This document shows, piece after piece, positions 91 to 50,154 of a DNA stretch of 64,000 bases (positions within the stretch are counted from its first letter, which is position 1; each line of letters begins with the position of its first letter). The position numbers were made by a program, and so were the translations under genes. The notes under the pieces were generated by a model. It saw only the letters and a list, made by a program, of their open reading frames with translations. It was not told the DNA's origin and ran no database searches. The DNA is from an uncultured Pseudomonadales bacterium (lineage in GTDB: Bacteria > Patescibacteriota > Microgenomatia > UBA1400 > CG1-02-47-37), in contig CAZVYS010000001.1 of NCBI GenBank assembly GCA_964630755.1, positions 25,893 to 89,892 of the forward strand, written 5' to 3'.

Positions 91-858
91 GTGAATTTTT
101 GGGTTAAAATCAAACTTAGACATATGGATAAAAAGACAGCTGGTAAGCTAAATCAAATTAATCAAGATTTCTACTTAAAGGTTCAGGAGTATTTTAACAG
201 AACAAGGCAATATTACTGGCGAGGGTTTGAAAAATTACTTCCCTATTTAGCTAACCTTCAGGGAGACTCCCTAAAGGTTCTTGATGTAGCTTGTGGGAAT
301 GGCCGATTTGGAAAGTTTTTAGCAGAAAAGGAAAGAAAGATTAAATACACAGGAATTGATAATAATCAGTATTTGTTAGATCAGGCTCAAAAAGACTTAC
401 CAAAAGCTAAGTTAATAAAACAGGATATTTTTGACAAATGGCAAGTTAAAGATAAATATGAGGTAATTGTTTTATTGGGTATTTTGCACCACATTCCAGG
501 TTTTGAAAATAGAGTAAAAATATTATTAAGAGCTAAAAAGAAATTAAAGAAAAACGGAGTGTTAATTTTTAGTTTATGGAGATTTGATAAGTCAAGAAAA
601 TATACCAGAAGAGTAATTAACTGGGGAGAGTTTAATCAAAATAGTAAGATAAAGATAAATCTAGATGAGCTTGAAAAAGGTGACAAAATAATAGACTGGA
701 AAAGAGGAGCTACAGCTTATCGATATGTGCATGTAACTTCTAAAATAGAGTTGGCTAAAATGATTGATAGGCTTCAAATGACAAAAACAAAAGAATTTTT
801 AGCTGATGGTGAGGAGAACAAGGGAAATAAATACGTTATTTTAAAAGCGGCAGCTTAA
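91..858 (+). CDS. class I SAM-dependent methyltransferase
   Basis: Motif I VLDVACGNGRFG with downstream acidic and hydrophobic motifs. The likelier start is the ATG at 124 (MDKKTAGK). Carries an in-frame palindromic element at 254-278 encoding LQGDSLKV just before motif I. Confidence 0.65.
   Translation: MNFWVKIKLRHMDKKTAGKLNQINQDFYLKVQEYFNRTRQYYWRGFEKLLPYLANLQGDSLKVLDVACGNGRFGKFLAEKERKIKYTGIDNNQYLLDQAQKDLPKAKLIKQDIFDKWQVKDKYEVIVLLGILHHIPGFENRVKILLRAKKKLKKNGVLIFSLWRFDKSRKYTRRVINWGEFNQNSKIKINLDELEKGDKIIDWKRGATAYRYVHVTSKIELAKMIDRLQMTKTKEFLADGEENKGNKYVILKAAA
254..278. repeat. palindromic element copy A (ACCTTCAGGGAGACTCCCTAAAGGT), in-frame in the methyltransferase
   Basis: Imperfect palindrome with a GGAGACTCC core and CCTTCAGG / CCTAAAGG arms. 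Translated as N-LQGDSLKV-L. Confidence 0.7.
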
Positions 859-4593: not shown

Positions 4594-6378
4594 ATGAAGG
4601 AAATACGAAATATTCTATTGCAGATTCCTAAATTTAAGCGTCGATTCGCAATGTTTGTGGTGGCAGTGATTATTGCTCAAGGAGTGGCAATTCAATTAAT
4701 TCCCTTGGTTGACAGAGAAATAACTAGTTTAGTGGAAAAAGCCATAAAAGGTGAGGTGATTCCAGTTTCAAGTTTTTACCCCTATGCATTAATCGTGGCA
4801 CTAGCTTACCTAGTATTTCGCATATTTAATCGAATTTCTTACACTTTGACTAGTATTTTAAGAGAAGAGGTTTGGAATCATACTTTTAGAACTGGATTTG
4901 CCAAGGTTTTGTTTCATGACCTTGAATATATTACAGCTGATCGATCAGGAGGGCTTTTAAGTAAACTTGAACGAGCTTCGACTAGTTTTGCTAATTTATT
5001 TACCGAATCGGCGGCGGCTCTTTTTCGGAATCTTTCAAAGGCATTTGCTTCATTAATTATTATTTTTAGTATTTCATGGGAAATAGGCTTGGGTGTCTTG
5101 GGAACTATGATTACTTATTATATTGTTTACTGGTTTAGGTTTAAGCTTGATATTCCATATGCTGAAAAAAGAGACAAATTTGCTGATGATGAGTTTAGTC
5201 GAGTATGGGAGGTTATTCCTCAATCAAAAATCAGTAAGATTTTTACAAATGAAAAGAAAGAAATTAAAAATATTGCTTGGATTGGAGATGAGATTATTAA
5301 GATTATTAAAAAACGTGAACTTTTGTGGTCATATGCCAATATAGCTGAGTATCCGTTAGTAACTATTCCAACTATTGTTATTAAACTTTGGGCGGCTTGG
5401 ATGGCTATTAACGGCAGATTTGGCATTCCGACTTTTGTGCTTCTTTATTCGATGATTTCAATAGTTCAAGAGCCAATGTGGGTAATTAACTGGTTTATGT
5501 GGGAGATGCAAGATACTTTTAATAGAGCAAAAAAGTATCTGAAGATTCTTCGCTCAAAAGAAAAAGTTCTAGATCCAGTCAAGCCTGAACGAATAGCTAA
5601 TCCTTTTGGAGATATAAAATTTGAACAGGTCAGCTTTAGCTATTCTCAGGGCCAAAAAAATGTTTTTAAGAAGATAAATCTTAACTTTTCAGGTAAACAA
5701 TTTACAGCCTTAGTGGGAAAATCTGGAGCAGGAAAATCGACGATTACCAACATGATCTGTCGTTTCTTTGACGTTTCCGAAGGCAAGATAACTATTAGCG
5801 GACAGGATATTCGTAAGTTGGCTAAAAAAGATTTACGATCACATATTGGTTTTGTGACCCAAGAGTCCTTTGTTTTCTCTGGGACTGTGGCAGAAAACCT
5901 TCGATATGCAAAAGTTGATGCAACTGATGATGAAATTATGACTGCTATTAAGAAAGCTTATGCGTGGGAATTTATTAAGAACTTTAAAAAAGGCATTCAG
6001 ACCGAAATTGGAGAACGGGGAATAAAACTGTCAGGAGGACAACGTCAACGCTTGTCCATTGCTCGAACTATACTAAAAAATCCATCGATACTTATCTTAG
6101 ATGAAGCGACCAACTCTCTTGATTCTGAGTCTGAGATGGCTGTGCAGCAAGCTCTTGAAAATTTTATGAAAGATCGAACAGTGATTGTGGTGGCGCATCG
6201 TTTGTCTACTGTGCAAAATGCCGATAAGATTTATTTAATTGATGATGGTCAAGTTCAAGAAGAAGGCAACCATCAAGAACTTCTGAAGAAAAACGGAGTT
6301 TATAAAATGTTGTATGAAATTCAATCTGGTGGTTTTGAGAAAAATCGCAAGATTATGCAAGAGTATGAACTTTTATGA
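4594..6378 (+). CDS. ABC transporter, fused permease/ATP-binding protein (type I exporter, MsbA-like)
   Basis: N-terminal transmembrane domain; Walker A GKSGAGKST; signature LSGGQRQR; Walker B ILILDEAT; H-loop. Confidence 0.8.
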   Translation: MKEIRNILLQIPKFKRRFAMFVVAVIIAQGVAIQLIPLVDREITSLVEKAIKGEVIPVSSFYPYALIVALAYLVFRIFNRISYTLTSILREEVWNHTFRTGFAKVLFHDLEYITADRSGGLLSKLERASTSFANLFTESAAALFRNLSKAFASLIIIFSISWEIGLGVLGTMITYYIVYWFRFKLDIPYAEKRDKFADDEFSRVWEVIPQSKISKIFTNEKKEIKNIAWIGDEIIKIIKKRELLWSYANIAEYPLVTIPTIVIKLWAAWMAINGRFGIPTFVLLYSMISIVQEPMWVINWFMWEMQDTFNRAKKYLKILRSKEKVLDPVKPERIANPFGDIKFEQVSFSYSQGQKNVFKKINLNFSGKQFTALVGKSGAGKSTITNMICRFFDVSEGKITISGQDIRKLAKKDLRSHIGFVTQESFVFSGTVAENLRYAKVDATDDEIMTAIKKAYAWEFIKNFKKGIQTEIGERGIKLSGGQRQRLSIARTILKNPSILILDEATNSLDSESEMAVQQALENFMKDRTVIVVAHRLSTVQNADKIYLIDDGQVQEEGNHQELLKKNGVYKMLYEIQSGGFEKNRKIMQEYELL

Positions 6379-7481: not shown

Positions 7482-7985
7482 ATGAAAAATAACTATTCAT
7501 TGTGGGTAGTGCCACCTACAAAGATTAAGCAACAACTAGAAACTGTTATAAATCAGTTGAGTAATGAGTATAATGCGCCCAGATTTGAAGCTCATATGAC
7601 AATTTTAGGAGGATTTGATGAAGAAGAAAAAGAAATGCTTAATAAAGCGCGGCAAATAGCTAAAAAAATAAAACCATTTGTATTGAGCCTAGATAAAGTT
7701 TCTTGCAGTACAACCTATGTTCAAAATGTTTTAGTTAGAGTAACCGTAACCAAAGAAGTACTTGAAGCTAACATGGTGGCAAAAAAAGTAATGAAAAAAG
7801 AAAATGACATGTTTATGCCGCATATTAGCCTAATGTATGGGGATCATACTATGAAAGAAAGAGCTGAGATTGCTTTAAAAATTAATCTACCCAGAGAGAT
7901 ATCATTTGATGTAAGCAAACTGGTGGTAATGGAAACTGGAGCTAATATTGAAAAATGGAAGTGTTTAGACGAGATTTCATTCTGA
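7482..7985 (+). CDS. 2H phosphoesterase superfamily protein (LigT / cyclic phosphodiesterase-like)
   Basis: Two H-x-T/S-x motifs, HMTILGGF and HISLMYG, spaced as in 2'-5' RNA ligase / 2H enzymes. Confidence 0.5.
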   Translation: MKNNYSLWVVPPTKIKQQLETVINQLSNEYNAPRFEAHMTILGGFDEEEKEMLNKARQIAKKIKPFVLSLDKVSCSTTYVQNVLVRVTVTKEVLEANMVAKKVMKKENDMFMPHISLMYGDHTMKERAEIALKINLPREISFDVSKLVVMETGANIEKWKCLDEISF

Positions 7986-8003
7986 CAAGGCCGGGCCTTG
8001 TCA
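7983..8003. terminator. GC-rich perfect hairpin (TGACAAGGCC-G-GGCCTTGTCA) between convergent genes, probably a bidirectional terminator
   Basis: A 10-bp inverted repeat followed by ATTTAATT. Its AAGG/CCTT arms echo the dispersed palindromic element. Confidence 0.35.
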
Positions 8004-8004
8004 T

Positions 8005-8583
8005 TTAATTAGGGATGCAGTTTGGCCAAATGTAGGCTTGGTTAATCGATAAAACATAGGCAGCTGTTCTAGCTGATTCTTTGGCGTTGAAGCGTAAATC
8101 TGGGTTTATGTCTTTATTCATCAAGTTTCTGTAGTGGATCCAAGTGTTGGGAGAAAACTGAAACAAACCAGCATAAGATAAATGCTGAGAACTTGGGTTA
8201 AAATCAGATTCACAGACTGCAATGTGACGAAAAATATGAAGGTCAATATTGTATTCTTTTGCGTATTTTTCAAAAAAACCATGAATTTCTTCGGAGGTGA
8301 ACTCAGGTTGCGGAGATGGACTGGGCCCGGCATTCGCCGGGTAAAGTTTTTTAATATTCTCAGTAGTTTCAGGGGTATTCACCCCTGAGTTATTACTAGT
8401 AGTTTTTTGGACTTTTGGAGAAGGTATGGGTGATGGAGCGGGAAAGTATGATAAGTCAGGAGTGAAGGTAGAAACAGGGTCTAGAAATTCTTGATTTTCT
8501 AATAAATTTTGCTGACTAATAATAACTAAGGGAATAATTACAAAAATAACAAGCTTGAACCAAGATAATGGTTTTTTTAACAT
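8005..8583 (-). CDS. secreted protein with an Rpf-like transglycosylase domain
   Basis: N-terminal transmembrane/signal segment and a Pro/Ser-rich linker. The C-terminus reads CESDFNPSSQHLSYAGLFQFSPNTW...NC, matching the transglycosylase-like (resuscitation-promoting-factor type) CES...GLFQFS..TW motif. Confidence 0.5.
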   Translation of the reverse strand: MLKKPLSWFKLVIFVIIPLVIISQQNLLENQEFLDPVSTFTPDLSYFPAPSPIPSPKVQKTTSNNSGVNTPETTENIKKLYPANAGPSPSPQPEFTSEEIHGFFEKYAKEYNIDLHIFRHIAVCESDFNPSSQHLSYAGLFQFSPNTWIHYRNLMNKDINPDLRFNAKESARTAAYVLSINQAYIWPNCIPN

Positions 8584-10084: not shown

Positions 10085-10903
10085 CTAATCTGCAAGAGGA
10101 ATTGAGTCTTTAAGGCTGAATTTTCCAACTTTAAGACGCTTGATGTTTAAAGCAAGGGCGGGAATATTTAGTTTTTGGCCAATGTTATTAGCTAACGAAC
10201 GCATATAAGTACCAGATGAGCAAGAAATCTTAAGAGTGGCAGTGGAAAAAGTATTAATGGAGTTTTGATTAAAGAATGCTTGCCAAGTCTTTTTAATTTG
10301 GGATTGTCGAAAGTCTCCTTTTACTAGTTTAATTGATTGAAGTATGTGCTTTTTGAGACTAATAGCAGAAATTCTGTTTATTGAAATTAGATTAATAGAG
10401 TTAATGGTGATTTTTCGAGTGGGAATTTTGATTTTATTTAGCTGATTAGTCCGAGCGTAATAGAAAAGCGGCCTACCTTTAACAGTTTTAGATGAATAGG
10501 GTGGATAAACTTGAACTTGAGGACCAATATAGCTTGGTAAAAGACCTTCAAGGTTGGACCTTGAAGGTTGGTGTCTCGAGAGTCTATTTGTTATAGGCTT
10601 AGAAAGCCTACCTTCAAGGTTGGACCTTGAAGGGTGAGAAGGTAGACCAAGAAAGTCGTAAGTGTCGGTGGAGACACCAAAGACAATTGTTAGCTGATAT
10701 GTTTTATCAAGATTAAGATATTGAGCTTTAAGCTTTTCAGTGGGATCAAGAATAATTAACAACACCCCCTCAGCTAAAGGGTCTAGCCGACCAGCATAGG
10801 TAAGTTTTTGATTTATTAGCTCAGGTTTTAGCTGTTGAAGCCTGTTAATGGCTTGAAGAGGCGTAAAACCTACAGGTTTATTTAAGTTGAAAATCTTTGC
10901 CAT
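10085..10903 (-). CDS. truB: tRNA pseudouridine(55) synthase TruB, with an approximately 90-nt in-frame insertion
   Basis: Catalytic motif AGRLDPLAEGVLLI (GxLDxxAxGVL). A PUA-like C-terminus is present. It carries a tandem palindromic-element insertion encoding PSRSNLEG twice. Confidence 0.8.
   Translation of the reverse strand: MAKIFNLNKPVGFTPLQAINRLQQLKPELINQKLTYAGRLDPLAEGVLLIILDPTEKLKAQYLNLDKTYQLTIVFGVSTDTYDFLGLPSHPSRSNLEGRLSKPITNRLSRHQPSRSNLEGLLPSYIGPQVQVYPPYSSKTVKGRPLFYYARTNQLNKIKIPTRKITINSINLISINRISAISLKKHILQSIKLVKGDFRQSQIKKTWQAFFNQNSINTFSTATLKISCSSGTYMRSLANNIGQKLNIPALALNIKRLKVGKFSLKDSIPLAD
10544..10634. repeat. tandem pair of palindromic elements (ACCTTCAAGGTTGGACCTTGAAGG, twice) with a palindromic spacer, inside truB
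   Basis: Copies at 10544-10568 and 10610-10634. The spacer contains CTCGAGAG and AGGCTTAGAAAGCCT palindromes. In-frame with no stop. Confidence 0.7.
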
Positions 10904-15913: not shown

Positions 15914-16862
15914 AAGCCCAGTTTATAAGAAGAGAGCTTTCTTGAAATCGATCAAGACTTCCTAGAATAACGGTAATAATCTCTTTATCCCCTCTTTTTG
16001 TGTAAGTAACTAAACACTCACCAGCCAACTCTGTCCAGCCGGTTTTGACACCTTTTAATCCCTTAATAGCACCTAATAGCTGATTAATGGTTTCTAGCTC
16101 ATGAGTAATAGTGTTGTCAACATTGTAAACAGTAATGTTTTGGGTGTTAACAATTTTTCTAAAAATGGGGTTTTCCATAGCATGGGCAGCTAGTAAACTT
16201 AAGTCATGAACTGTGGTGTAATGACCATAATTATCTAAACCAGTGGGGTTTTGAAATTGAGTATCAGTAAGATTAAGTTCAGTTAGTTTATGATTCATGG
16301 CCTTGACAAAACCAGCCTCTTTTTGTGGATGATAATTAGCTAAGGCTGCAGCGGCGTCATTTCCAGATTGAACTAGTAAACCGTAAAGTAAGTTTTCAAC
16401 GGTAATTTCCTCATGAAACTCTAACTCCATTGATTGACCTTCGGTGACTAAAGAATCAATCTTCACAACATCGTCAAGATCAAAAACTTCTAAAGCAATT
16501 AGGGCAGTCATGATTTTGGTGGTAGAAGCTGGCAAGAGTTTTAAATCTTGATTTTTATTAAAAAGCATTGCTTTGGAATTAACATCAACTACAATAGCTG
16601 AACGGGCAGTTATGTACGGAGCTAATATGCCCGTATGATTAACTGGATATTCTGAAGTGGAACTAGATTGGATATTTATTGGCCTAACTAAAGGACTTGA
16701 TTGATCAATGTTAAGGTTAAGATAATAGTTTTTGGCAGGAATAAAGATAAGAACAAAGATAGCTAAGATAAGATTAAGCTTAAGATAAGGAGTTTTTTTG
16801 ACAAAGGCTATGAATTTGTCCATGGAATTAGTTAACAAATTCACCCAGTTTTGGATTAACAA
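15867..16862 (-). CDS. D-alanyl-D-alanine carboxypeptidase (serine-type, PBP5/DacA-like)
   Basis: SxxK (ASTTKIM), SxN (VQSGNDAA) and KTG (KTGWT) motifs at the expected spacing; N-terminal transmembrane anchor. Confidence 0.75.
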   Translation of the reverse strand: MLIQNWVNLLTNSMDKFIAFVKKTPYLKLNLILAIFVLIFIPAKNYYLNLNIDQSSPLVRPINIQSSSTSEYPVNHTGILAPYITARSAIVVDVNSKAMLFNKNQDLKLLPASTTKIMTALIALEVFDLDDVVKIDSLVTEGQSMELEFHEEITVENLLYGLLVQSGNDAAAALANYHPQKEAGFVKAMNHKLTELNLTDTQFQNPTGLDNYGHYTTVHDLSLLAAHAMENPIFRKIVNTQNITVYNVDNTITHELETINQLLGAIKGLKGVKTGWTELAGECLVTYTKRGDKEIITVILGSLDRFQESSLLINWAFTNHQWQDLSEASHL

Positions 16863-18768
16863 GATCGATAAAATCCTGATAGTTCATTTTAATAGATTTT
16901 TCGTGTAGGCCAGCGTTAAATACTATTTTTTTATTTTTCCCGAGTTTTTTATCGACAAAAACCGATACATCGAATAAATTCCCAAATGGTGGAACTGAGC
17001 CAATCTTTAAACCAGTAAGGTTAGTAACTTCAGTTTCTGTGGCCATTCTTAAATCTTTGACGTTAAAGGCTTTTTTAAAGGCTTTTGAATCTACTTTAGT
17101 GGCAGCGGATAAGACTAGCATGATTGGTTTTTTGTCGGCCATCATAACAAGAGCTTTAGCGCCTTGTTTGATCTTGGTTCCTCGAACTTTTGCAGCTTCA
17201 AGGCTTGTAAAAACTGGCTGGTGCTCAAAAGTTTTGTATTTAAGTTGATGCTTATCAAGTAAATTTATGATTTTTTGGTTAACTTCAAGGCCCTTGGGGC
17301 TTAACTTCTGGCCAATGGTTTTAATATGTAGTTCAATTAACTGCTCAGTATCTGGTAGACTAGGGGCATCAACCACAGCTGTTTGACCGGAAGAAATGGC
17401 CGGAAAAGCCATGACTTCGCGGATGCTTTTTTCACCTAAAATAACCATTAAAAAGCGGTCAAGCCCTGGAGCAATACCACCATGGGGTGGAACACCGTGC
17501 TTGAAAGCGGTTAGCATGTGCTCGAATTTTTGTTTTTGTTTTTGGGTAAAACCAATTAATTCAAAGACTTTTTCTTGAACTTTTGGATCATGGATCCTAA
17601 TGGAACCACCACCGACTTCATAACCATTTAAGACCAGGTCATGCTGAAGGCCACGAACTTTTAATGGATTTGTTTTTAGTAATTTTAGGTCATCTTGATG
17701 AGGAGAAGTAAACATGTGATGACTTGGAGCAAATTCAGCTTTACCTGATCCATGGAAAAAATCTTCCTCTGATTGTTTGTTAAATAAAGGAAAGTCAATA
17801 ATCCAAGCAAAAGCTAGCTCGTCTTTATCTTTTTTGTTTTTCCGAAGATCAGGTTTATCTGAACCATATTTGGCTTGCGCTTCAGCATGAGAAATTCTTG
17901 GCCAAGGAGATTTTGAGATCTTTTTTTCTGGAAAGATTTCTTTAATTAATTTAGTAAATAAATCCTCTGTTAATTTTAAGATGTCGTCTTGAGTTACAAA
18001 AGACATTTCTAGATCAAGCTGAGTAAACTCACCATAAGCTCGATCTGCTCGCGGGTCTTCGTCACGGAAGCATCTTGCAATCTGAAAATATCTTTCAAAG
18101 CCAGCTACCATCAGTAATTGTTTGTACTGTTGTGGACTTTGGGGTAAAGCGTAAAAATTACCGGGTTGTAAGCGTGATGGAACTAAAAAATCTCGAGCTC
18201 CTTCTGGAGTAGTTTTGGTAAGAATTGGAGTTTCGATTTCAACAAAATCTTTGTTAGTTAAAAAATCTCGGATAAATTTAAATACCTTGGATCGAATTTT
18301 CATGTTTTGGTTCATTCTAGGTCTTCGAAGATCAAGATAACGGTATTTTTGTCGGATTTTTTCTTCTATGTTCAAACCATCAGTGTCTATAGGTAGTGGC
18401 ATTTCTTTTGATTTGGTTAAAACTTTAATTTTTTCAGCCTTGATTTCGACTGTGCCAGTTTTAAGTTTAGGGTTAGTGTAACCTTTGCCTCTTTTAACTA
18501 CCTTGCCTTGAACTTCGACAACATACTCTGGTTTTAGCTCGATTTTTAGATTTTCAACAACTACTTGGATTAGACCAGATCGATCGCGAAGATCAAAAAA
18601 GACAATCTTGCCATGTCCCCTAATAGAATTAACCCAACCCTTGAGGGTGACTGACTTGTTATTTTGGGTGGCGGTTTCAAGGGCGAGTGTTCTTTTCATG
18701 TATTTGATTGTATCGGTAAATCTAAGGGTTGACAAGAATAGATAGTTTGATAAGATAACTAGATGCAA
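16828..18768 (-). CDS. aspS: aspartyl-tRNA synthetase (no GAD insertion) fused to a C-terminal YbaK/ProX-like aminoacyl-tRNA trans-editing domain
   Basis: OB-fold N-terminus; class II motif 2 FRDEDPRADRAYGEFTQLD; motif 3 GGIAPGLDRFLMV; AspRS-specific QSPQQYKQLLMV. The last approximately 160 aa (KTFEHQPVFTSLEAAKVRG...LVLSAATKVDSKAF...LRMATETEVTNLTGLKIGSVPPFG...) match the tRNA_edit (YbaK) fold. The track start is TTG; the likelier start is the ATG at 18699 (MKRTLALE). Confidence 0.8.
   Translation of the reverse strand: MHLVILSNYLFLSTLRFTDTIKYMKRTLALETATQNNKSVTLKGWVNSIRGHGKIVFFDLRDRSGLIQVVVENLKIELKPEYVVEVQGKVVKRGKGYTNPKLKTGTVEIKAEKIKVLTKSKEMPLPIDTDGLNIEEKIRQKYRYLDLRRPRMNQNMKIRSKVFKFIRDFLTNKDFVEIETPILTKTTPEGARDFLVPSRLQPGNFYALPQSPQQYKQLLMVAGFERYFQIARCFRDEDPRADRAYGEFTQLDLEMSFVTQDDILKLTEDLFTKLIKEIFPEKKISKSPWPRISHAEAQAKYGSDKPDLRKNKKDKDELAFAWIIDFPLFNKQSEEDFFHGSGKAEFAPSHHMFTSPHQDDLKLLKTNPLKVRGLQHDLVLNGYEVGGGSIRIHDPKVQEKVFELIGFTQKQKQKFEHMLTAFKHGVPPHGGIAPGLDRFLMVILGEKSIREVMAFPAISSGQTAVVDAPSLPDTEQLIELHIKTIGQKLSPKGLEVNQKIINLLDKHQLKYKTFEHQPVFTSLEAAKVRGTKIKQGAKALVMMADKKPIMLVLSAATKVDSKAFKKAFNVKDLRMATETEVTNLTGLKIGSVPPFGNLFDVSVFVDKKLGKNKKIVFNAGLHEKSIKMNYQDFIDLVNPKLGEFVN
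18706..18757. promoter_or_regulatory. overlapping divergent sigma70-like promoters sharing one -35 hexamer
   Basis: + strand: TTGACA (18729-18734), 16-nt spacer, TAAGAT (18751-18756). - strand: TTGTCA (reverse complement of 18730-18735), 17-nt spacer, TACAAT (reverse complement of 18706-18711), then 6 nt to the aspS ATG (18699), so aspS may be leaderless. Confidence 0.35.
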
Positions 18769-18913: not shown

Positions 18914-18939
18914 ATGCACCAAAGGGGGTGAAAGAAAAT

Positions 18940-19128
18940 ATGAAAAATGTAGAATCGAGAACAAAAATTTCTCCATATACGTTTAATGGAGTTGAATTTC
19001 GTGATCCTGGGAATGGCCCTTTAGATCCAGGTGATGGAGGAAGTGACGAGGGCCCAATCTCTCCAGGTGATACAGGTGCACCAGGTGTCGTATATCAAAC
19101 GGAGCGTGCTTCTCAAGCTCGTAATTAA
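18940..19128 (+). CDS. small hypothetical protein (63 aa) with a Gly/Pro/Asp-rich repetitive tail
   Basis: Strong Shine-Dalgarno AAAGGGGGTG 9 nt upstream of the ATG. Internal peptide repeat GPLDPGDGG / GPISPGDTG. The track start is a GTG at 18928. No signal peptide. Confidence 0.35.
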   Translation: MKNVESRTKISPYTFNGVEFRDPGNGPLDPGDGGSDEGPISPGDTGAPGVVYQTERASQARN

Positions 19129-19144
19129 TACTTAAATATATACT

Positions 19145-19171
19145 AGCCTACGAGGAGAGTCCTTGTAGGCT
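19145..19171. repeat. palindromic element copy (AGCCTACGAGGAGAGTCCTTGTAGGCT) abutting the recJ stop codon
   Basis: Inverted repeat with a GGAGAGTCC core; overlaps the TAA of recJ (19171-19173). Confidence 0.6.
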
Positions 19172-20856
19172 TAGGTCATGAGAACTGTTTTGACTTTTAG
19201 TTGGAGGGATTTTTGGTTGTTCCAGACGTTTTTATCGAGAGTGTAGACAAGATCAATTGGTTGATTTTCTGATAAGTCTTTGGCTAGATAGCCGTGGTTA
19301 AAAGCAATGGCATTTACCTTCAAGGAGTCTCCCTGTAGGCTTAATTTAAGATGTTTTTGGTCTTGGCCGACGGTGCGAAAACTAGCTAAAGAGACTTTTT
19401 TAGAAATAAAGACTGGCCGAGGATTGCCAAAACCAAAGGGGCGTAGTTTTTCAAGGTCATCATATAATTCCCAGTTAATGTCAGAAAGATTAAGCTCTAG
19501 GTCAACCTCTAGGATTGGAGTGAGTTGTCTTTCTGTTAGTTGCTTTTCAGCTAAAGCAGTTAATTTTTTCTTCACTTTTTCAAGATTTTGATTTGCAACC
19601 GTAAAGCCAGCAGCCATTGGGTGACCGCCGTGTTCAAGTAAGTCTTTTTCAATAGATCTAATATTTTTAATGGCATTAAAGCCTTTAATCGACCTAATTG
19701 AAGCTTTGGAAGTGTTTTTGCCAAGAGCGACTACAATGCTAGGTCGATGATATTTTTCAGCCAAGCGACTGGCAACTAGACCAACTAAACCTTCATGAAA
19801 AGTTTTGTCTGCTACGAAAATGAGCTTTGGCATTTGATTTTGATTTAGCTTGGAGACTTTGTTGGTAATGTTTTTGGCATGAAAGTACATATCTAGAGTT
19901 TGGGTTTGACGAGTCTGATTGGTAAGGTTCACGGTTTGGGCTAGTTTTTTAGCCTTGTTATTATCGGTGGTGCAAAGTAACCTCAATGAATCTAGGGCAT
20001 GAGATAAACGCCCCATGGCGTTAAGCCGAGGACCAATAACAAAACTGGCCTGATAGGCTTCAAGGTCTTGGAGTTTAAAACCAGCTTCATCAGCTAGAGC
20101 AATTAGACCGGGTCTTTTAGAACTTTGAAGTTTTTTTAAACCAAATTTAGCAATAGAGCGATTTATACCCACTAAAGGCATCATGTCAGCAATAGAACCA
20201 AGGGCAACTAAACTTAAGTGTTGAGGGATATTTTTAAGAAGCTTTGAAATCTGCCAAGCAACGCCAACGCCAGCTAGCTTAGTAGAGTGAACGATGGAGT
20301 GAGCTTTGGGAAGTTTATTACCCTTTGGTTGATGGTGGTCAGAGATAATAACTTCAATGCCTAGTCTATTGGCATAATCCACTCCTTTAAAGGCCGAGAT
20401 ACCGTTGTCAACGGTGATGATAAGATCGGGCTTTTTCTTTTTTAAAGAAATAATCTCGTCAATGCCCTGAGGAGATAAACCGCGGATTTTATCATCTCGG
20501 GGTGGAATATATGGTAAAGCATTAGCTTTTAATTGATAAAGTGTTTCCCACAAAACAGCGGTGGCGGTTACTCCATCAGCGTCAAAATCTCCGTAAATAA
20601 AGATCAGTTCTTTATTTTTAATAGCTTTTTTAATTCTTGTAACTGCTTTTTTGAGTTGAGTTGAATTAATTTCTAAGTCTTTAGGGGAAAAGTTGATTGG
20701 ATTTTCTGGGCTTAAAAATTGGTTTTGGAGTTTTTTGGATATAAGACCTCTGTTAATTAATAAAGCCTGGATGATTTCCTGGCGGCGTTTATTGAGACTT
20801 TTAGTTTTTAGTTTAGATTTTATTTTTATCTTTTTATCCATAAGAGATATAATCAT
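19171..20856 (-). CDS. recJ: single-stranded-DNA-specific exonuclease RecJ
   Basis: DHH family motifs (GDFDADGVT, ...IISDHH) and a DHHA1-like C-terminal region. Carries an in-frame palindromic element near the C-terminus (LSLQGDSLKVNAI). Confidence 0.8.
   Translation of the reverse strand: MIISLMDKKIKIKSKLKTKSLNKRRQEIIQALLINRGLISKKLQNQFLSPENPINFSPKDLEINSTQLKKAVTRIKKAIKNKELIFIYGDFDADGVTATAVLWETLYQLKANALPYIPPRDDKIRGLSPQGIDEIISLKKKKPDLIITVDNGISAFKGVDYANRLGIEVIISDHHQPKGNKLPKAHSIVHSTKLAGVGVAWQISKLLKNIPQHLSLVALGSIADMMPLVGINRSIAKFGLKKLQSSKRPGLIALADEAGFKLQDLEAYQASFVIGPRLNAMGRLSHALDSLRLLCTTDNNKAKKLAQTVNLTNQTRQTQTLDMYFHAKNITNKVSKLNQNQMPKLIFVADKTFHEGLVGLVASRLAEKYHRPSIVVALGKNTSKASIRSIKGFNAIKNIRSIEKDLLEHGGHPMAAGFTVANQNLEKVKKKLTALAEKQLTERQLTPILEVDLELNLSDINWELYDDLEKLRPFGFGNPRPVFISKKVSLASFRTVGQDQKHLKLSLQGDSLKVNAIAFNHGYLAKDLSENQPIDLVYTLDKNVWNNQKSLQLKVKTVLMT
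19316..19341. repeat. palindromic element copy (ACCTTCAAGGAGTCTCCCTGTAGGCT), in-frame in recJ
   Basis: GGAGTCTCC core; encodes LQGDSLKV on the minus strand. Confidence 0.7.
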
Positions 20857-20886: not shown

Positions 20887-21615
20887 ATGAATTTACGTCT
20901 GAAAAATTATAAGAAAATTAGAACTCCGTTTGTATTTTTAGATGAAACTGGATCAATAAACTCAAAAGCAGAAAGATTTTTTGGAATTGGAATGATTAAG
21001 TGCATGCAGCCATTTTTTTTAGACTCAAGCATTAGATACATTAGGCAAAAATATAAGCTTTATGATGAAATAAAGTGGAATACTATTTCTAAAGCAAAAA
21101 TGGCTGTTTTAAAAGAAATAATTAAAACTATTTTTGAAACTCCAGGAATTTATTTTTCTTCCTTAATTATTAATAAAGATGATGTTAATTTTGAAATTGA
21201 GTTTAATAATAATCCATATTTAGCATATCAAAAATTTTCAGAAGAGTTGCTAAAAAATAGTATTAGTCAAACAGAAATATTAACGGTTTTAGCTGATTAT
21301 ATTGATACGCCTAAATCAGTTAGGTATGAAGTAATGGTAAAACATCAAGTTAATCAAGCACTAGATCGACTAGCAATCGGGGGCATACATAGAGTAGATT
21401 CAAAAGGGGTAAATTTAATTCAAATAACTGATTTATTTTTAGGAGCCGTAGTGTATAACTATAAAATTGACAATAAATTAGTAACTGGAGACAAGAATAA
21501 AATAAAAATACTACAATATATTCAGTCAGGGTTAAAGATTAAATCTTTAGGTCAATCTATAAACGTAAAAGGGTTTAAAGTATTTGAATACAATAAAAAA
21601 GGGCCATCATCCTAA
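20887..21615 (+). CDS. hypothetical protein, DUF3800-like
   Basis: The N-terminus TPFVFLDETGSINS resembles the DUF3800 (Y)IDESG start. No other motif recognised. Confidence 0.3.
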   Translation: MNLRLKNYKKIRTPFVFLDETGSINSKAERFFGIGMIKCMQPFFLDSSIRYIRQKYKLYDEIKWNTISKAKMAVLKEIIKTIFETPGIYFSSLIINKDDVNFEIEFNNNPYLAYQKFSEELLKNSISQTEILTVLADYIDTPKSVRYEVMVKHQVNQALDRLAIGGIHRVDSKGVNLIQITDLFLGAVVYNYKIDNKLVTGDKNKIKILQYIQSGLKIKSLGQSINVKGFKVFEYNKKGPSS

Positions 21616-21667: not shown

Positions 21668-23041
21668 ATGAAAATTAAGCTTCCAGGGCCAGTAAAAAAA
21701 GTAATTAAAGTGGTAGAAAAAGCAGGCTTTGAAATATATATAGTTGGAGGGGCGGTTAGAGATATATTAACTGGTAAAGAAGTTAAAGATTGGGACCTAA
21801 CCACAAATGCAAAGCCTGAAGAGATAACTAAGTTATTTAAAGACTCGTTTTATGATAATGATTTTGGCACAGTGGGGATAGCTGAAAAGCACTTGGGAGG
21901 TAAGGATGAGGGAGTTTTAGAGATTACTACCTTTCGAACTGAATCAAGTTATTCTGACTCTAGACGCCCTGATAAAGTTAAGTGGGGTAAAAGTTTAGAT
22001 GAGGATTTAACTAGACGAGATTTTACTATCAATGCCATGGCAATAAAAATCTCCAGCCTACAAGGATCATCCTTAAAGGTTGAGATAATCGACCCATTTA
22101 AAGGACAAAAGGATTTAGAAAAAAGATTAATTAGGGCGGTTGGTGACCCAGATAAGCGGTTTAAAGAAGATGCTTTAAGAATGATGAGGGCGATTAGAAT
22201 CGCAGCAGAACTTGGTTTTACCATTGAAGCTAAGACCTTAAAAGCGATTAGCACGGATGCTAGATTACTAAAAAAAATTGCCAAAGAAAGGGTTCGAGAT
22301 GAGTTGCTTAAGATTATTGTTTCAAAATTTCCTAAAGATGGAGTGACTTTGTTATATACCAGCGGACTACTACAATTTATTATTCCAGAGTTAATTGAAA
22401 CTCGAGAAGTTGAACAAGCTGGGCATCATACTAAAGATGTATGGAACCATAGTTTAGACGCGATGGCTAACTGTCCTTCGCCTGATCCAATTATTCGCCT
22501 TGCTACCCTACTCCATGATGTTGGCAAACCAAGGTCAAAAAGAAATCGAGGTAAAGGCAAAGAAATTACTTTTTACAATCATGAAGTGATTGGGGCCAGG
22601 ATGGTAAAAGATATTGCCAGGAGACTAAAGATGAGTAAAAAAGAAATAGACTTACTCTGGTTACTGGTGCGCTGGCATATGTTTGCTTATGAACCCAAGA
22701 TGACAGACAAAGCGATTCGAAGATTTATTAAACGAGTCTCGTTAGAAAATATTAATAAAATGATGATGCTTAGGATTGGAGACCGGATTGGCGGGGGTAG
22801 TAAAGCTACTTCCTGGAGATTAAGAGAATTACAACAACGAATTGGTGAAGTGCTTTATACGCCGATGCAGATAAAAGACTTAAAAGTATCTGGTCACGAT
22901 GTAATGAAGATAAAAAAAATTAAAGGTGGGCCAGAGATTGGAAAAATTTTAGAAAAGCTGTTTGATGAAGTAATGGAAGATAGTAGCAAAAACAACAGAA
23001 AGTATCTTTTAAAACGGATTAAAGAAATAAATCCAAAATAA
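21668..23041 (+). CDS. cca: tRNA nucleotidyltransferase (CCA-adding enzyme / poly(A) polymerase family) with an HD domain
   Basis: IVGGAVRDILTG...DWDLTT polymerase-beta head motif; HD domain (LLHDVGK). In-frame palindromic element encoding SSLQGSSLKVEI. Confidence 0.75.
   Translation: MKIKLPGPVKKVIKVVEKAGFEIYIVGGAVRDILTGKEVKDWDLTTNAKPEEITKLFKDSFYDNDFGTVGIAEKHLGGKDEGVLEITTFRTESSYSDSRRPDKVKWGKSLDEDLTRRDFTINAMAIKISSLQGSSLKVEIIDPFKGQKDLEKRLIRAVGDPDKRFKEDALRMMRAIRIAAELGFTIEAKTLKAISTDARLLKKIAKERVRDELLKIIVSKFPKDGVTLLYTSGLLQFIIPELIETREVEQAGHHTKDVWNHSLDAMANCPSPDPIIRLATLLHDVGKPRSKRNRGKGKEITFYNHEVIGARMVKDIARRLKMSKKEIDLLWLLVRWHMFAYEPKMTDKAIRRFIKRVSLENINKMMMLRIGDRIGGGSKATSWRLRELQQRIGEVLYTPMQIKDLKVSGHDVMKIKKIKGGPEIGKILEKLFDEVMEDSSKNNRKYLLKRIKEINPK
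22055..22080. repeat. palindromic element copy (AGCCTACAAGGATCATCCTTAAAGGT), in-frame in cca
   Basis: CCTACAAGG / CCTTAAAGG arms with a GGATCATCC core. Confidence 0.65.
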
Positions 23042-23048
23042 AAAAAGT

Positions 23049-23103
23049 GCCAAGTGAAGAATGGGTTTAAGATTAAAAATCTTAAAAACAAGCTCCACTT
23101 GGC
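23049..23103. terminator. nested hairpin between the convergent cca and secF genes (outer stem GCCAAGTG/CACTTGGC, inner TTTAAGATT/AATCTTAAA)
   Basis: Inverted repeats in the 88-nt convergent intergenic region; plausibly a bidirectional terminator. Confidence 0.3.
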
Positions 23104-23129
23104 TTACTTCTAACTTGGAGAATAATTAT

Positions 23130-24018
23130 CTAGTTATTTCTTTTCTTAGACTTAAACTCTTCCCATAAGACCAGTAAAGGGGCGGCGGTGAAGGTTGAGG
23201 AATAAGTGCCGGAGATAGTACCGATTAGTAAGGCAAAAATAAACCATTTGGTGGTCTCGCCACCTAGTAAGTAAAGCGAGAGTAACATAAAGATAATAGT
23301 TAAGGAATTATTGACTGATCGACCTAGAGTTTCGGTGACGGCCTTGTTAACTAGGTCTGTATAAGGCATCTTAGTATGAAGAGATTGAGATTCTCTGATC
23401 CGATCATAAACTACGATGGTGTCATGAACTGAAAAAGAAAGAATAGTTAAAACAGCGGTTACAAATAAGGCGTCAACTTCAATCCCTTGAGTGGCGCCTA
23501 GAAAACTAAAAACTCCGATTAAGATAAAAGTATCATGAAGCATGGCTAGGATAGCACAAACGCCGTATTTTTTATCTTTGAACCTGAATGTCACATATAA
23601 AAGAATAAAGCCGGCTGCCAAACTAACGCCAATCAAGGTTTTTCTAATTAATTCTTTACCTAGAGTAGGCCCTAAGGTTGAAAAGCTAATCTCCTGAGTA
23701 TCTCCTAAAGAAGTAGTTAGTTCTTGTTGCAAGGTTTTATTTTTGGTTTGATCGAATTCTTGGGCTTTAATAATAAAGGTGTTTTCTCCTGTGCTTTGAA
23801 CGCTATGTAGATCAATTATTTTTTTAGATATGTCTTCAACTTGATCGACTGTGATGTCTTCAACTTGAGTAGGCTTGATGTTTAATTCAAGTAAAGTGCC
23901 ACCAGTAAAGTCTACGGCTGGTTTTAATCCATAATTAACTAGATAAAAGGCGCTCGGAATTAAAAAAAACAAGGAGATTATAAAATAAACTAGTTTGTAT
24001 TTCATGAAGTTAATCATA
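23130..24018 (-). CDS. secF: protein translocase subunit SecF
   Basis: SecF membrane topology and motifs. The likelier start is the ATG at 24018 (MINFMKYKLVY) with AGGA 7 nt upstream. The track ORF (to 24104) reads through the palindromic elements. Confidence 0.8.
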
Positions 24019-24021
24019 TGA

Positions 24022-25434
24022 TTATCCTGTAGGGAGACTCCTTCCAGTTTTGCTGTCCCGATTTGGCCGTTGGCCAGATCTCCTGTCAAGGAGTCTCCCT
24101 CCAACTCTCATTAGAGATCTAGTTACTATGACTCCTGTAAACAAACTAATAATCACTCCAATAAACAAAGTTAAGGCAAAGCCTTTGACCATTCCAGAAG
24201 TATTTAGAAAGTTAAAGTTAAAAGGATTAATTAAGACTAAGCTTGTAATGATTGTGGCAAGATTGGCATCTTTGATTGAGTCCCAAGCTCGACCAAAACC
24301 CAATTCTAAAGAAACAGCAAAAGACCGACCAGCTCTTAACTCTTCTTTGAGTCTTTCAAAAATTAAGATATTTGAGTCAACGGCCATGCCGACTGACAAA
24401 ATAAAACCGGCAATGCCTGGTAAAGTTAAGGTAACTGGAATTAATTTATAAATAGTTAAAGTAATCAAACCATAAATTAATAAAGCAATATTAGCTAACA
24501 TTCCGTTTAGTCCGTATAGCAAAACCATAAAAAGCATAACTAAGCCTAAACCAATGGCTCCAGCAGTGATTGATTTAGTGATTGAGGCTTCTCCCAAGGT
24601 AGCGGAAATGTTTTTTTGTTCAACAACCTTAATAGGAACTGGTAAAGCCCCAGCGTTAAGCATGATAGATAATTCTGAAGCGGTTTCGGGGGTAAAGTTG
24701 CCAGAAATGACGGCTCGACCATCAAGAATTGGCTCGTTAACCATGGGTGAAGTAACTAAACGGTTATCTAGGAAAATAGCGACTGGTCGGTTTAAATTAC
24801 GAGAGGTAATGTCGGCAAATTGCTTTTTGCCTTCTTCTGAAAACTCTAAAGCAACTACTGGTTGATTGGCGGCTGATTGACCCTGAGAAAATTGGACTGA
24901 GGCTTTTTTTAGATCTTTGCCAGTCAAGCCGGTAGAAGTAAAGTTGAAAATACGGGTAAAAGCTGATGGGCTAGCGTAATTAACTTCAGCTGAATCAGTA
25001 GCAGTATCTTCCCTGAAATCTAACTGGGCAGTTTGACCGATTAAGTTAATAGCCGTAGATATATCCTGAATTCCAGGAAGCTCAACAATAATCCGGTATG
25101 AATCATCATGAATAGAAGTTTGTATTGATGGCTCTGACACCCCGTAGAGATCAACCCGGCGAGAGATAATTTCTTTTGAAGAGTTAATAGCATCAGGGAT
25201 ATCTTCTTTTTGAAGTGAGGACATATCTGCCTCTAAAACTAGATGAGTACCACCTTGAAGATCAAGTCCTTTTTTTAATTCAAGAGTTCGAGAGTTAATG
25301 GTAATTTTGGGAATATTAAAGTTTATTTCTCGATTTTTAATCTTAAAATTGACTGGAATAGCAGGAAGGTTGAGATAAAGGCAGACTAAAACTAGAAGTA
25401 TAATAAACCACAATCGGCGGACAGAATTTTTCAT
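24022..25434 (-). CDS. secD: protein translocase subunit SecD (C-terminal approximately 25 aa derived from palindromic elements)
   Basis: SecD periplasmic domain plus six C-terminal transmembrane helices. The C-terminal tail ...RRSGQRPNRDSKTGRSLPTG is encoded by the repeat block. Confidence 0.8.
   Translation of the reverse strand: MKNSVRRLWFIILLVLVCLYLNLPAIPVNFKIKNREINFNIPKITINSRTLELKKGLDLQGGTHLVLEADMSSLQKEDIPDAINSSKEIISRRVDLYGVSEPSIQTSIHDDSYRIIVELPGIQDISTAINLIGQTAQLDFREDTATDSAEVNYASPSAFTRIFNFTSTGLTGKDLKKASVQFSQGQSAANQPVVALEFSEEGKKQFADITSRNLNRPVAIFLDNRLVTSPMVNEPILDGRAVISGNFTPETASELSIMLNAGALPVPIKVVEQKNISATLGEASITKSITAGAIGLGLVMLFMVLLYGLNGMLANIALLIYGLITLTIYKLIPVTLTLPGIAGFILSVGMAVDSNILIFERLKEELRAGRSFAVSLELGFGRAWDSIKDANLATIITSLVLINPFNFNFLNTSGMVKGFALTLFIGVIISLFTGVIVTRSLMRVGGRLLDRRSGQRPNRDSKTGRSLPTG
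24026..24104. repeat. composite of two palindromic element copies (CCTGTAGGGAGACTCCTTCCAG and CCTGTCAAGGAGTCTCCCTCCAA) around a GGCCGTTGGCC palindrome, at the secD/secF junction
   Basis: GGAGACTCC / GGAGTCTCC cores. The whole block is in-frame with secD and forms its last approximately 25 codons. Confidence 0.7.
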
Positions 25435-35740: not shown

Positions 35741-36688
35741 CTATTTAGTATACCAAGACTTTAGTTGAGTGACTACTATTTGAGGATAGTTATGACTATT
35801 GATATTAAACCATTTAATGTAGGGTTTTTTATGAAACCAAGTTATTTGGCGACGAAGATATTGTTTTTCAGCTGTTGTCCAGGATTTAATAACTTTATCT
35901 ATGTTAATATTTTTCTTAAAATAAGGCTGCCATTGTTTATATCCCATGGCTGACATAGACGGTAAATTCCAAGAATAGCCAGCTTTGATTAGTGATTCAA
36001 CTTCTGCTTTGGAATTAGCGCTAATTCTATCAAGAACTCTTTTCTCAACTCTATTATCTAAGTTTTTTTTATTAGCAGTTAAACCAACCCAAAATTGATC
36101 AGATTCTGCAAGATTCAGTCTTTTTGTTTTCTTAACCTTCAAGGTCGGACCCTTAAGGTTAATTTCGATAGCCCGAATTAGTCGACGTGGATTATGTTGA
36201 TCAGAATGATTCATTTTTTGATATTTATCAAAATCTAGTTTTTTTAGTTTTTTTTGAAGACTGAGAACATTTAATTTACTTAACTGCTGGCGTAAAACTT
36301 GGTTAGCAGGAATGGCAATGGTGTTTAGTGGTTTTGTTAAAGCCTGAAGATACAAACCAGTACCGCCAACAAGAATAGGCAATTCTCTGGCAGTCCAAAT
36401 CTTTTTAATTCTAGGGATAGCAAAGTTTATAAAATGAGCGACAGAAAAATCCTGATTTGGTTTAACTAAATCGTAACCCCAGACTTTAATTTTTTTGATT
36501 AAATAATGTCCATCTTTATATTGTTTAGCTTTTTGAGGTAAATCTTTGCCTGTGCCAATATCCATTCCTTTATAAACTTGACGAGAATCAGCTGAGATAA
36601 TCTGACCTGAAAAGATCTTACTTAATTTTAAAGCCAAATTGGTTTTGCCAGTGGCAGTTGAACCACAAATAATTAGAAGTTTTTTCAT
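35741..36688 (-). CDS. miaA: tRNA dimethylallyltransferase MiaA (with an in-frame palindromic element)
   Basis: P-loop LLIICGSTATGKT, DSRQVYKGMDIGT. The element encodes INLKGPTLKVKK. Confidence 0.8.
   Translation of the reverse strand: MKKLLIICGSTATGKTNLALKLSKIFSGQIISADSRQVYKGMDIGTGKDLPQKAKQYKDGHYLIKKIKVWGYDLVKPNQDFSVAHFINFAIPRIKKIWTARELPILVGGTGLYLQALTKPLNTIAIPANQVLRQQLSKLNVLSLQKKLKKLDFDKYQKMNHSDQHNPRRLIRAIEINLKGPTLKVKKTKRLNLAESDQFWVGLTANKKNLDNRVEKRVLDRISANSKAEVESLIKAGYSWNLPSMSAMGYKQWQPYFKKNINIDKVIKSWTTAEKQYLRRQITWFHKKPYIKWFNINSHNYPQIVVTQLKSWYTK
36133..36159. repeat. palindromic element copy (AACCTTCAAGGTCGGACCCTTAAGGTT), in-frame in miaA
   Basis: CCTTCAAGG / CCTTAAGG arms with a GGTCGGACC core. 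Confidence 0.65.
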
Positions 36689-49828: not shown

Positions 49829-50154
49829 CAGATAAGAGGGGCAAAGTTTTAAGGTGGGTGGGTAAGATTCCTAAAGGCAAGGTGTCTACATACGGTCGGA
49901 TTGCAAAACTAGCAAAAGTTAAAAGTGCCAGGCCAGTTGGTAACTGGCTGCACACTCATGGTAAACCAATCAGTATTGTCCCCTGTCATCGGGTGGTAAA
50001 TGCTCAAGGCAAGCTTGCTTTAAATTTTGGAGCTAAAGGTGGGATAAAAACTCAAAAAAAACGATTAGAAAATGAAGAGGTTAAGGTGGAAAACTATAAA
50101 GTAGATCTAGATAAATATTTATGGAAGCCTACAGGGAGTCTATTTGAAAGTTAG
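49825..50154 (+). CDS. ogt: methylated-DNA--protein-cysteine methyltransferase (Ogt/MGMT DNA-binding domain)
   Basis: VSTYGRIAKL...PCHRVVNAQGKL, with the PCHRV active-site motif. Start overlaps the upstream nuclease gene by 4 nt. Confidence 0.7.
   Translation: MTDKRGKVLRWVGKIPKGKVSTYGRIAKLAKVKSARPVGNWLHTHGKPISIVPCHRVVNAQGKLALNFGAKGGIKTQKKRLENEEVKVENYKVDLDKYLWKPTGSLFES
50128..50150. repeat. degenerate palindromic element copy (CCTACAGGGAGTCTATTTGAAAG) in the last codons of ogt
   Basis: Left arm and core match the family (CCTACAGGGAGTCT); the right arm is decayed. Confidence 0.3.

Follow-up and report, generated by a model that had tools for sequence, protein, structure and literature searches.

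A dispersed, probably REP-type palindrome with two copies at the recJ gene of a Patescibacteria genome

Repetitive extragenic palindromic (REP) elements and their REP-associated tyrosine transposases (RAYTs) are known mainly from Proteobacteria, and the repeats are defined as extragenic. The Rickettsia palindromic elements (RPE), which Ogata et al. are said to have described in 2000, reportedly lie in frame in housekeeping genes including truB and are tolerated as a surface peptide; they are reportedly ca. 100-150 bp long, code for 30-50 residues and are tagged with CGTC, and we know of no dedicated transposase for them. Palindromic amphipathic repeat coding elements (PARCELs), whose length exceeds 100 nt, are found in genes for surface proteins of Mollicutes and other organisms. 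The defining REP-RAYT arrangement is a repeat that flanks a single Y1 transposase gene (PMC5581495, PMC3733652), abundant flanking repeats being a central trait of RAYT genes (PMC5581495), and intergenic REPs have been described downstream of genes, hard against the stop codons (PMC3733652). Di Nocera et al. 2013 (PMC3733652) also reported intragenic GTAG/CGTC REPs that lie wholly in open reading frames (ORFs) and encode short peptides, sometimes two per gene and often in replication and repair genes and truB, with GTAG ends of REPs providing TAG stops; the same paper mentions RPE, and Patescibacteria are not among the host phyla that it lists. Here we describe a 25-nt palindrome that occurs twice at recJ, the gene of a single-stranded-DNA-specific exonuclease, in a 64,000-nt stretch of DNA from an uncultured bacterium (contig CAZVYS010000001.1, positions 25,893 to 89,892; hereafter the window, 35.5% GC), and that is dispersed in ultra-small, ca. 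89% coding Patescibacteria genomes. Literature searches for REP or RAYT repeats in Patescibacteria, Microgenomates or the candidate phyla radiation yielded no description.

The unit is a near-perfect palindrome, R-CCTWCARGG-N5-CCYTGWAGG-Y, with a 10-bp stem and a 3-nt loop. An earlier note on this DNA had placed one copy in frame within recJ and another at its stop codon, 145 nt apart, as members of one dispersed element; both locations and the spacing were confirmed, and the family described below supports their common identity. Homologs of the recJ product carry DHH, DHHA1 and RecJ_OB domains (precomputed Pfam matches), solved RecJ structures were matched in a PDB search, and the best named relatives are labelled 'Patescibacteria group', Candidatus Beckwithbacteria or Gottesmanbacteria. 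The in-frame copy (ACCTTCAAGGAGTCTCCCTGTAGGC on the + strand) sits 56 codons upstream of the stop and reads AGC CTA CAG GGA GAC TCC TTG AAG GTA on the minus strand in the recJ frame. The translation, SLQGDSLKV in the RecJ_OB domain, bears out the peptide LQGDSLKV that had been assigned to it. The other copy (GCCTACGAGGAGAGTCCTTGTAGGC on the + strand) begins 0 nt downstream of the TAA and lies in the 42-nt gap between recJ and a convergent small ORF, whose stop lies 17 nt ahead of it. Its arms of 11 nt include one G.T pair and enclose a GAG loop, whereas the in-frame copy belongs to the GAC/GTC loop subtype, and in the RNAfold model its extended stem takes in the bases of the recJ stop codon. 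Tails resembling GTAGGCTTA come after both recJ copies.

Both copies belong to a family that is well represented in the window. A search with the 25-nt pattern, allowing up to three mismatches, gave three sites (six strand matches), namely the two recJ copies and one more within the gene of the CCA-adding enzyme; 100 shuffles gave 0.00. A position-weight matrix built from copies outside the window found seven strong sites of 27.9-38.7 bits, where the best site in 10 shuffled windows reached 2.9 bits. Two further sites scored lower: 50127, a decayed copy (10.1 bits), and 24025, which is doubtful (7.5 bits). Six of the seven strong copies are intragenic, the one at 19146 being the only fully intergenic copy, and seven of the eight strongest sites are translated. 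Loop types among the window copies are mixed.

A metagenome scan with the pattern CCTWCARGGNNNNNCCYTGWAGG gave at least 144 exact matches on at least 120 contigs. All metagenome-wide counts in this paper rest on these pattern-selected contigs, which are a biased sample, and on crude ORF calling. The listed matches lie mostly in DNA of 30-50% GC, and a scan of viral contigs with the pattern gave one unrelated match in 57% GC DNA. With up to two mismatches, the 757 kb (ca. 0.8 Mb) of listed contigs hold at least 193-197 copies. Their central N5 is nearly always of the form w-NNN-w', i.e. a tenth base pair around a 3-nt loop, with CCA/TGG, CAG/CTG, GAG/CTC, GAC/GTC, CCG/CGG and TCA/TGA as common loop types. 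At the W positions, within the stem, CTAC/GTAG alternates with CTTC/GAAG, and in the asymmetric form CTAC...GAAG, which is common, only one strand has GTAG. The flanks are conserved only as R at -1 and Y at +1, and no target-site duplications were found, flanking direct repeats being at chance (2-nt repeats at 6-9%, 7% expected). A greedy gene call, by which 89% of the DNA is coding, puts 100 of 197 copies in genes, 58 in defined gaps and 39 near contig edges. The density computed from these counts is ca. 8-fold higher in non-coding than in coding DNA, which points to selection against most genic insertions.

Within genes, the copies use mainly two of the three reading frames. Because the unit is an odd-length palindrome, one frame maps onto itself on the opposite strand and reads L-Q-G-x-(S/T/A)-L-K in either orientation. 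The second frame, P-(S/T)-(R/G)-x-x-L-(E/V)-G, is stop-free, and the third, T-(F/Y)-K-x-x-P-C-R, meets TGA in GAAG arms. Among the 117 of 193 copies that lie within stop-to-stop ORFs of at least 100 amino acids, the P-S-R frame is used 57 times, the L-Q-G frame 50 times and the third frame 10 times. A perfect CTAC...GTAG copy would place TAG in the 3' arm of the L-Q-G frame; no copy in this frame has a 3'-arm GTAG, which follows from the restriction of scoring to open frames, and half keep CTAC in the 5' arm, which leaves an A.A mismatch. What is informative is that the third frame is nearly absent and that the remaining two are used equally. As a separate observation, in P-S-R-frame copies with unequal arms (metagenome loci L087-L206) the sense strand carries CTAC in its 5' arm with GAAG in its 3' arm 18 times, and the reverse twice; amino-acid selection favouring E over V could underlie this, or else an orientation bias with respect to transcription or replication.

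A candidate enzyme was found on contigs with several close copies (L202, L163, L107 and L185), which encode a protein of ca. 215-225 amino acids with PNHFHL (HUH) and YIHRNP motifs. By tblastn the protein is present in 13 of the listed 120 contigs; it matches Pfam Y1_Tnp at 40-43 bits (threshold 23), and public sources label its homologs 'transposase [Patescibacteria / Candidatus Beckwithbacteria]'. In the homolog alignment H82, H84 and Y142 are invariant, and the HUH and YIHRNP motifs are invariant or nearly so. In a PDB search with the AlphaFold model of homolog P0121 (pLDDT 80, pTM 0.81), 4er8_A, which is E. coli RAYT in complex with a REP hairpin, ranked first (E 5e-6, TM 0.65 on target), ahead of the TnpA proteins of ISDra2 and IS608. 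Six contigs (L202, L141, L185, L107, L163 and L135) share a layout of four copies around and within this gene: one 14-40 nt before the ATG, one 0-12 nt after the stop, one at residue ca. 50 in the L-Q-G frame, and one at residue ca. 151, just past YIHRNP, in the P-S-R frame. Three truncated contigs agree with this layout. In the P0121 model the element-encoded stretches are low-confidence loops (residues 53-57 and 151-157). By analogy, since a repeat-flanked Y1 transposase gene is what defines REP-RAYT systems, the element is classed as a REP-type repeat, and it has probably been spread by a RAYT-like enzyme. A subgroup of the transposases (e.g. P0146-P0171) lacks the first in-gene copy.

Comparison with homologs showed what the copies contribute to host proteins. 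The CCA-adding enzyme has eight extra residues exactly at the element when aligned to PDB 6ibp, TruB has eight and nine extra residues at its two copies relative to PDB 1ze1, and RecJ is 7-8 residues longer at the site than close element-free homologs, which read ...KLKIED--FDAIAF.

Taken together, we consider it likely that the palindrome is a REP-type family dispersed in a Beckwithbacteria-like clade of Patescibacteria, forming a REPtron-like unit with a Y1/HUH transposase in relatives of the window genome. The transposase would recognise the hairpin on single-stranded DNA, and cutting and joining without target-site duplications, as expected for IS200/IS605-type chemistry, would seed copies around the chromosome. 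In genomes that are ca. 89% coding, most insertions would fall in genes, where selection would retain copies in surface loops and in the two stop-free frames, L-Q-G and P-S-R; the third frame, with TGA in GAAG arms and rich in Cys and Pro, would be purged, and so would 3'-arm GTAG in the L-Q-G frame because TAG results. Intergenic copies would persist best directly against a stop codon and may serve as 3' mRNA hairpins. The in-frame recJ copy would then be a long-standing resident of a RecJ_OB loop, and the stop-adjacent copy would likewise have been in place for long, in the gap where recJ and the small ORF converge. Because the window has no transposase gene and its copies are of mixed loop types, these copies may be fossils, or the gene that serves them may lie in another part of the genome.

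Several points weigh against a REP-type family moved by such an enzyme. We infer the mobilisation; neither the 64-kb window, searched by tblastn, nor the syntenic relative L005 has a RAYT-like gene, so the link between copies and enzyme is drawn from other genomes. The sole NCBIfam match of the protein, NF047646 ('REP-associated tyrosine transposase'), scores 38-41 bits against a cut-off of 80, and sequence-only PDB searches, with a single transposase or with an 11-sequence profile, gave no significant match. GTAG/CTAC lies inside the stem and in about half of the arms only, and is not an unpaired end tag as in classical REPs. The metagenome contigs were chosen by the pattern itself and their ORF calls are crude. 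Finally, the RecJ copy adds only two residues relative to PDB 8y30, which has a native turn TLGESNI, and the miaA copy adds none, its NLKGPTLKV aligning with the native KLTGKTVTE of solved MiaA. Because of these two cases, simple insertion suits most copies but not all, and replacement or conversion of similar native sequence may apply to some. For the miaA copy itself (30.9 bits), either it is a replacement and no insertion, or drift can bring native sequences into the family.

The transposase loci display a further regularity, in that all four copies of a locus have a loop type in common: GAC in L202, CAG in L163, CCAGG in L107, TGG/CCA in L185, GAG in L135 and TCA in L141. The transposases of these loci are only 55-64% identical. 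Among 120 homologs (P0121-P0240), 44 have both in-gene peptides, and the loops deduced from these are compatible in 43 of the 44, a figure inflated by shared ancestry, compared with a mean of 16 and a maximum of 25 in shuffles; 13 distinct loop combinations occur. The many distinct loop types speak for co-switching on repeated occasions. Loop type is more variable among the dispersed copies of these contigs, as it is among the window copies. In-situ replacement and gene conversion are candidate causes of this pattern. We suggest tentatively, while leaning somewhat against it, that a RAYT-REP system has shifted to a mainly intragenic life and become a recurrent source of loop insertions of 8-9 residues in core proteins (RecJ, TruB, the CCA-adding enzyme and the transposase itself), its hairpin being of a shape by which two frames do no harm, with copies replaced in situ. 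If this is true, a transposase- or conversion-driven 'refresh' of resident copies would mean that a repeat lodged in essential genes evolves in concert.

The earlier note also suggested that the element prefers the 3' ends of genes. Element position relative to stop codons, approximated on the pattern-selected contigs, showed an enrichment among intergenic copies: gap copies facing the 3' end of a gene number 52, and 24 of these overlap the stop or are no more than 10 nt away from it, as compared with only four gap copies so close to a facing start. Several of the copies near stops themselves provide the stop codon. The preference did not hold for in-gene copies, which are evenly spread (mean relative ORF position 0.52, with 4 of 106 within five codons of the stop). 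The counts do not separate three candidate causes of the stop adjacency, namely a choice of target, selection favouring a 3' hairpin and tolerance of truncated gene ends. A conserved TAA in the element flank, tested as a cause, was not found, and enrichment in convergent gaps (13 of 58 copies, 15.5% background) is not convincing. Liang, Rudd and Deutscher reportedly found in 2015 that E. coli REPs within 15 nt of a stop stall ribosomes and reduce expression.

The position of these copies would also suit a signal of the host acting in RNA or DNA, such as a terminator, a stabiliser of mRNA 3' ends, a translation-coupled regulator, a protein-binding site or an uptake signal, which might be a secondary, co-opted role. 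The stop-adjacent hairpin is strong, folding at -20.2 kcal/mol (z -3.4) on the + strand and -15.7 kcal/mol on the - strand, the copy is kept in relatives L209, L005 and L211, and the G.T pair in the stems of the window copy and of the L135 copies gives better pairing on one strand, as would be expected of an RNA. However, there is no T/U tract on either strand and a terminator scan of the window makes no call there, so that the earlier label 'hairpin terminator candidate' holds for the hairpin and fails for the terminator; an intrinsic (Rho-independent) terminator at 19146-19170 was rejected for this reason. A gathering-threshold Rfam scan of the window found two tRNAs only and nothing at element sites. 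Furthermore, most copies are intragenic, where a terminator would do harm, half-sites rarely stand alone, unlike those of uptake sequences, and neither element-sized protein indels nor clustering at a transposase gene are expected for a pure signal. A host signal as the origin of the family appears unlikely, though it remains the most serious competitor.

The origin of the recJ pair was traced in syntenic relatives, whose RecJ proteins are 79% (L211), 77% (L005), 61% (L209), 57% (L207 and L208) and 53% (L210) identical to that of the window. In L005 and L207-L211 a DNA palindrome of the family is present at the same RecJ codon, with varying loop type and degree of decay; many further RecJ homologs have an LQGxSLKV-type peptide at this site, and others are 7-8 residues shorter. 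A RecJ-profile search of genome contigs gave, among the matches listed (80 loci, mostly distant Chloroflexi or Firmicutes RecJ), only L007 (Beckwithbacteria) with a single near-match. The stop-adjacent copy is likewise old. In L209, where it begins 1 nt past the RecJ TAA, its CTC/GAG loop is that of the window copy. L005 and L211 have a same-subtype copy that adjoins the conserved small convergent ORF and is separated from recJ by inserted genes, namely a Phd/ParE toxin-antitoxin pair in L005 (11711-12222) and a 122-residue ORF in L211 (8151-8519). Both recJ copies thus predate the split of these lineages and are two independent family members, not parent and daughter. The insertions in these two relatives fall exactly at the repeat boundary (window 19170/19171), which may be an insertion hot spot.

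These results bear on the proposal that one recJ copy arose from the other by local hopping, or that a copy landed behind the stop and became coding by stop loss. The 145 nt between the recJ copies and the 66 nt between the two truB copies would suit hopping, and the intergenic enrichment at stops and the copy at 50127, which forms the last eight codons of an ORF, would suit an origin at 3' ends. Hopping is contradicted by the different loop subtypes and by the conserved position of each copy in relatives. Read-through of a captured 3' untranslated region is refuted for recJ because the C-terminal ca. 50 residues past the in-frame copy are conserved in element-free RecJ homologs, and the even spread of in-gene copies speaks against it for the family. 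This proposal is very improbable. The even spread and the equal use of two frames fit a model in which copies insert directly into coding sequence and are then selected. The recJ pair looks like an inherited arrangement that is ordinary for the family, and it is no evidence for local transposition.

Even less probable, in our judgement, is selection on the protein, with LQGxSLKV as a favoured beta-turn peptide and the DNA palindrome as a by-product. The peptide does recur in RecJ, the CCA-adding enzyme, a methyltransferase and MiaA, and the native sequences mentioned above for MiaA and for RecJ of PDB 8y30 are similar to it. However, the second frame, PSRxxLEG, is as frequent (57 vs 50 copies) and includes both truB copies, ca. 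40% of the copies are non-coding, and the codons pair as GGA/TCC, GGT/ACC and GGC/GCC, beyond any amino-acid requirement. Chance resemblance or an assembly artefact can be set aside in practice, since the pattern gave no match in 100 shuffles, the metagenome contigs hold the many exact matches counted above, and three independent assemblies (L001-L003) have identical recJ loci.

Table 1. Copies of the palindrome and associated features in the window (positions count from its first letter)
Feature	Position	Strand	Description	Evidence
REP-type palindrome, GAG-loop subtype	19146..19170	.	Directly 3' of recJ stop	32.7 bits
recJ stop codon TAA	19171..19173	-	Adjoins palindrome; in extended stem	Sequence, RNAfold
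REP-type palindrome, GAC/GTC-loop subtype	19316..19340	-	SLQGDSLKV in self-symmetric frame, RecJ_OB domain	35.7 bits
recJ	19171..20856	-	Host gene of in-frame copy	Pfam on homologs; PDB E 7e-80
Small convergent ORF	18928..19128	+	66 amino acids, no Pfam match	In relatives copy stays beside ORF
Copy in class I methyltransferase gene (ORF 91-858)	254..278	+	NLQGDSLKV, just ahead of the S-adenosylmethionine-binding motif	27.9 bits
Copy in truB (ORF 10085-10903)	10544..10568	-	PSRSNLEG frame; 8-9-residue insertion vs PDB 1ze1	38.7 bits
Second copy in truB	10610..10634	-	66 nt from first, same frame PSRSNLEG	36.5 bits
Copy in CCA-adding enzyme gene (ORF 21668-23041)	22056..22080	+	SLQGSSLKV; 8-residue insertion vs PDB 6ibp	Pattern match
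Copy in miaA (ORF 35741-36688)	36135..36159	-	NLKGPTLKV; no insertion vs solved MiaA	30.9 bits
Decayed copy in MGMT-like ORF 49825-50154	50127..50151	+	Last 8 residues (PTGSLFES); adjoins stop of convergent rpsI	10.1 bits
Possible heavily decayed copy	24025..24049	.	Junction of ORFs 23130-24104 and 24022-25434 (putative secF/secD, by synteny with relatives)	7.5 bits vs null maximum 2.9

The other copies of the window (Table 1) differ in how far they are shared. In truB, the two copies have the same loop orientation and a 43-nt spacer, and L005 and L211 likewise have two copies, or one plus a decayed one. Between the two truB copies of the window lies a third small perfect palindrome, TAGGCTT-AGA-AAGCCTA (10594-10610), which overlaps the first base of the second copy. 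The site in the CCA-adding enzyme gene is empty in L005 and holds a decayed copy in L211, and the decayed copy in the MGMT-like ORF has lost its fold according to RNAfold. Two loci of L211 suggest re-insertion into resident copies: its recJ loop (ca. 7960-8010) reads T-L-Q-N-L-Q-G-S-S-L-K-V, with a perfect TCA-loop copy preceded by an apparent older 5' arm, ACCCTGCAG, and its CCA-enzyme loop (ca. 5990-6040) has a decayed copy plus an extra mini-palindrome GCCTGC..GCAGGC.

A second, different Y1 transposase, ca. 36% identical to the first, is encoded in L207 (7951-8631), L208 (7947-8636) and L007 (7890-8579), in each case between secF and the CCA-enzyme gene, a position two genes away from recJ that is conserved in synteny. 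On either side of this transposase gene lies a palindrome of its own, unrelated to the present element, ATCACACC-TCTA-AGGTGTGAT in L207 and L208 and ATCACACACC-CGGTGTGTGAT in L007. Neither this transposase nor its repeat (searched as TCACACC-N4-GGTGTGA) was found in the window, where the corresponding gap is 23042-23129. This gap, past the CCA-enzyme gene, instead holds a long hairpin (23049-23110), GCCAAGTG...CACTTGGC with an inner palindrome TTAAGATT...AATCTTAA, whose sequence is unrelated to the element described here. Between recJ and the CCA-enzyme gene the window has a DUF3800 gene (20887-21615), which is also present in L001-L003 and absent there in L005 and L207-L211, where recJ and the CCA gene are adjacent, pointing to a lineage-specific insertion. 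The aspartyl-tRNA synthetase ORF of the window (16828-18768) is ca. 180 residues longer than that of L005 (463 amino acids). Because the L211 orthologue (572 amino acids) has a precomputed Pfam match to tRNA_edit (YbaK-like), this looks like a C-terminal editing-domain fusion in only some relatives.

If confirmed, these observations extend REP-RAYT biology to the candidate phyla radiation and provide a concrete, datable source of small loop insertions, which can mislead alignments and gene annotation. The family would also be a tractable case for studying host tolerance, or use, of hairpins in coding mRNA and at stop codons.

Two described classes of element were rejected as a home for the palindrome. 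It is not a miniature inverted-repeat transposable element, since the unit is 25 nt long, as compared with 70-300 bp, and target-site duplications are at chance level. A DNA uptake sequence (DUS) or uptake signal sequence (USS) was rejected because half-sites are nearly absent outside the paired palindrome, five of the seven matches of a half-site search of the window lying within elements.

The closest counterparts are the REP and REPIN-RAYT systems, such as E. coli TnpA-REP (PDB 4ER8) and the Pseudomonas REPINs. Like these, the family consists of a short palindrome at ca. 0.1 copies per kb, includes a Y1/HUH gene flanked on both sides by the repeat with a fold that best matches 4ER8, leaves no target-site duplications, has intergenic copies downstream of genes and against stops, and has the GTAG/CTAC tetranucleotide in many of its arms. 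Inverted REP doublets, the organization of REPINs, were not seen: copies mostly occur singly, those of the truB pair share one loop orientation, and those of the recJ pair differ in subtype. Unlike classical REPs, at least half of the present copies are intragenic and translated, at odds with an extragenic definition; the stem is a near-perfect 10-bp helix with a 3-nt loop and GTAG inside it, and the transposase gene itself has two copies in frame. The family resembles the intragenic REPs of PMC3733652, with peptide-coding copies wholly in ORFs, sometimes two in one gene, and truB among the hosts; in that paper, however, intragenic copies make up the minority of each family, whereas here they are the majority and follow a two-frame rule. 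Compared to the IS200/IS605 enzymes (TnpA of IS608 and ISDra2), the transposase has the same catalytic fold and motifs, and a hairpin-directed transposition of single strands would be common to both; what those enzymes move is their own gene, bounded by sub-terminal hairpins, whereas here the repeated unit is a bare 25-nt hairpin. PARCELs resemble the element as palindromic repeats with a similar translation from either strand, but are longer than its 25 nt. With RPE, finally, the element shares in-frame insertion into functional protein genes, here those of the CCA-adding enzyme, RecJ and TruB; unlike RPE, it is 25 nt long (8-9 residues), lacks CGTC and is tied to a Y1 transposase.

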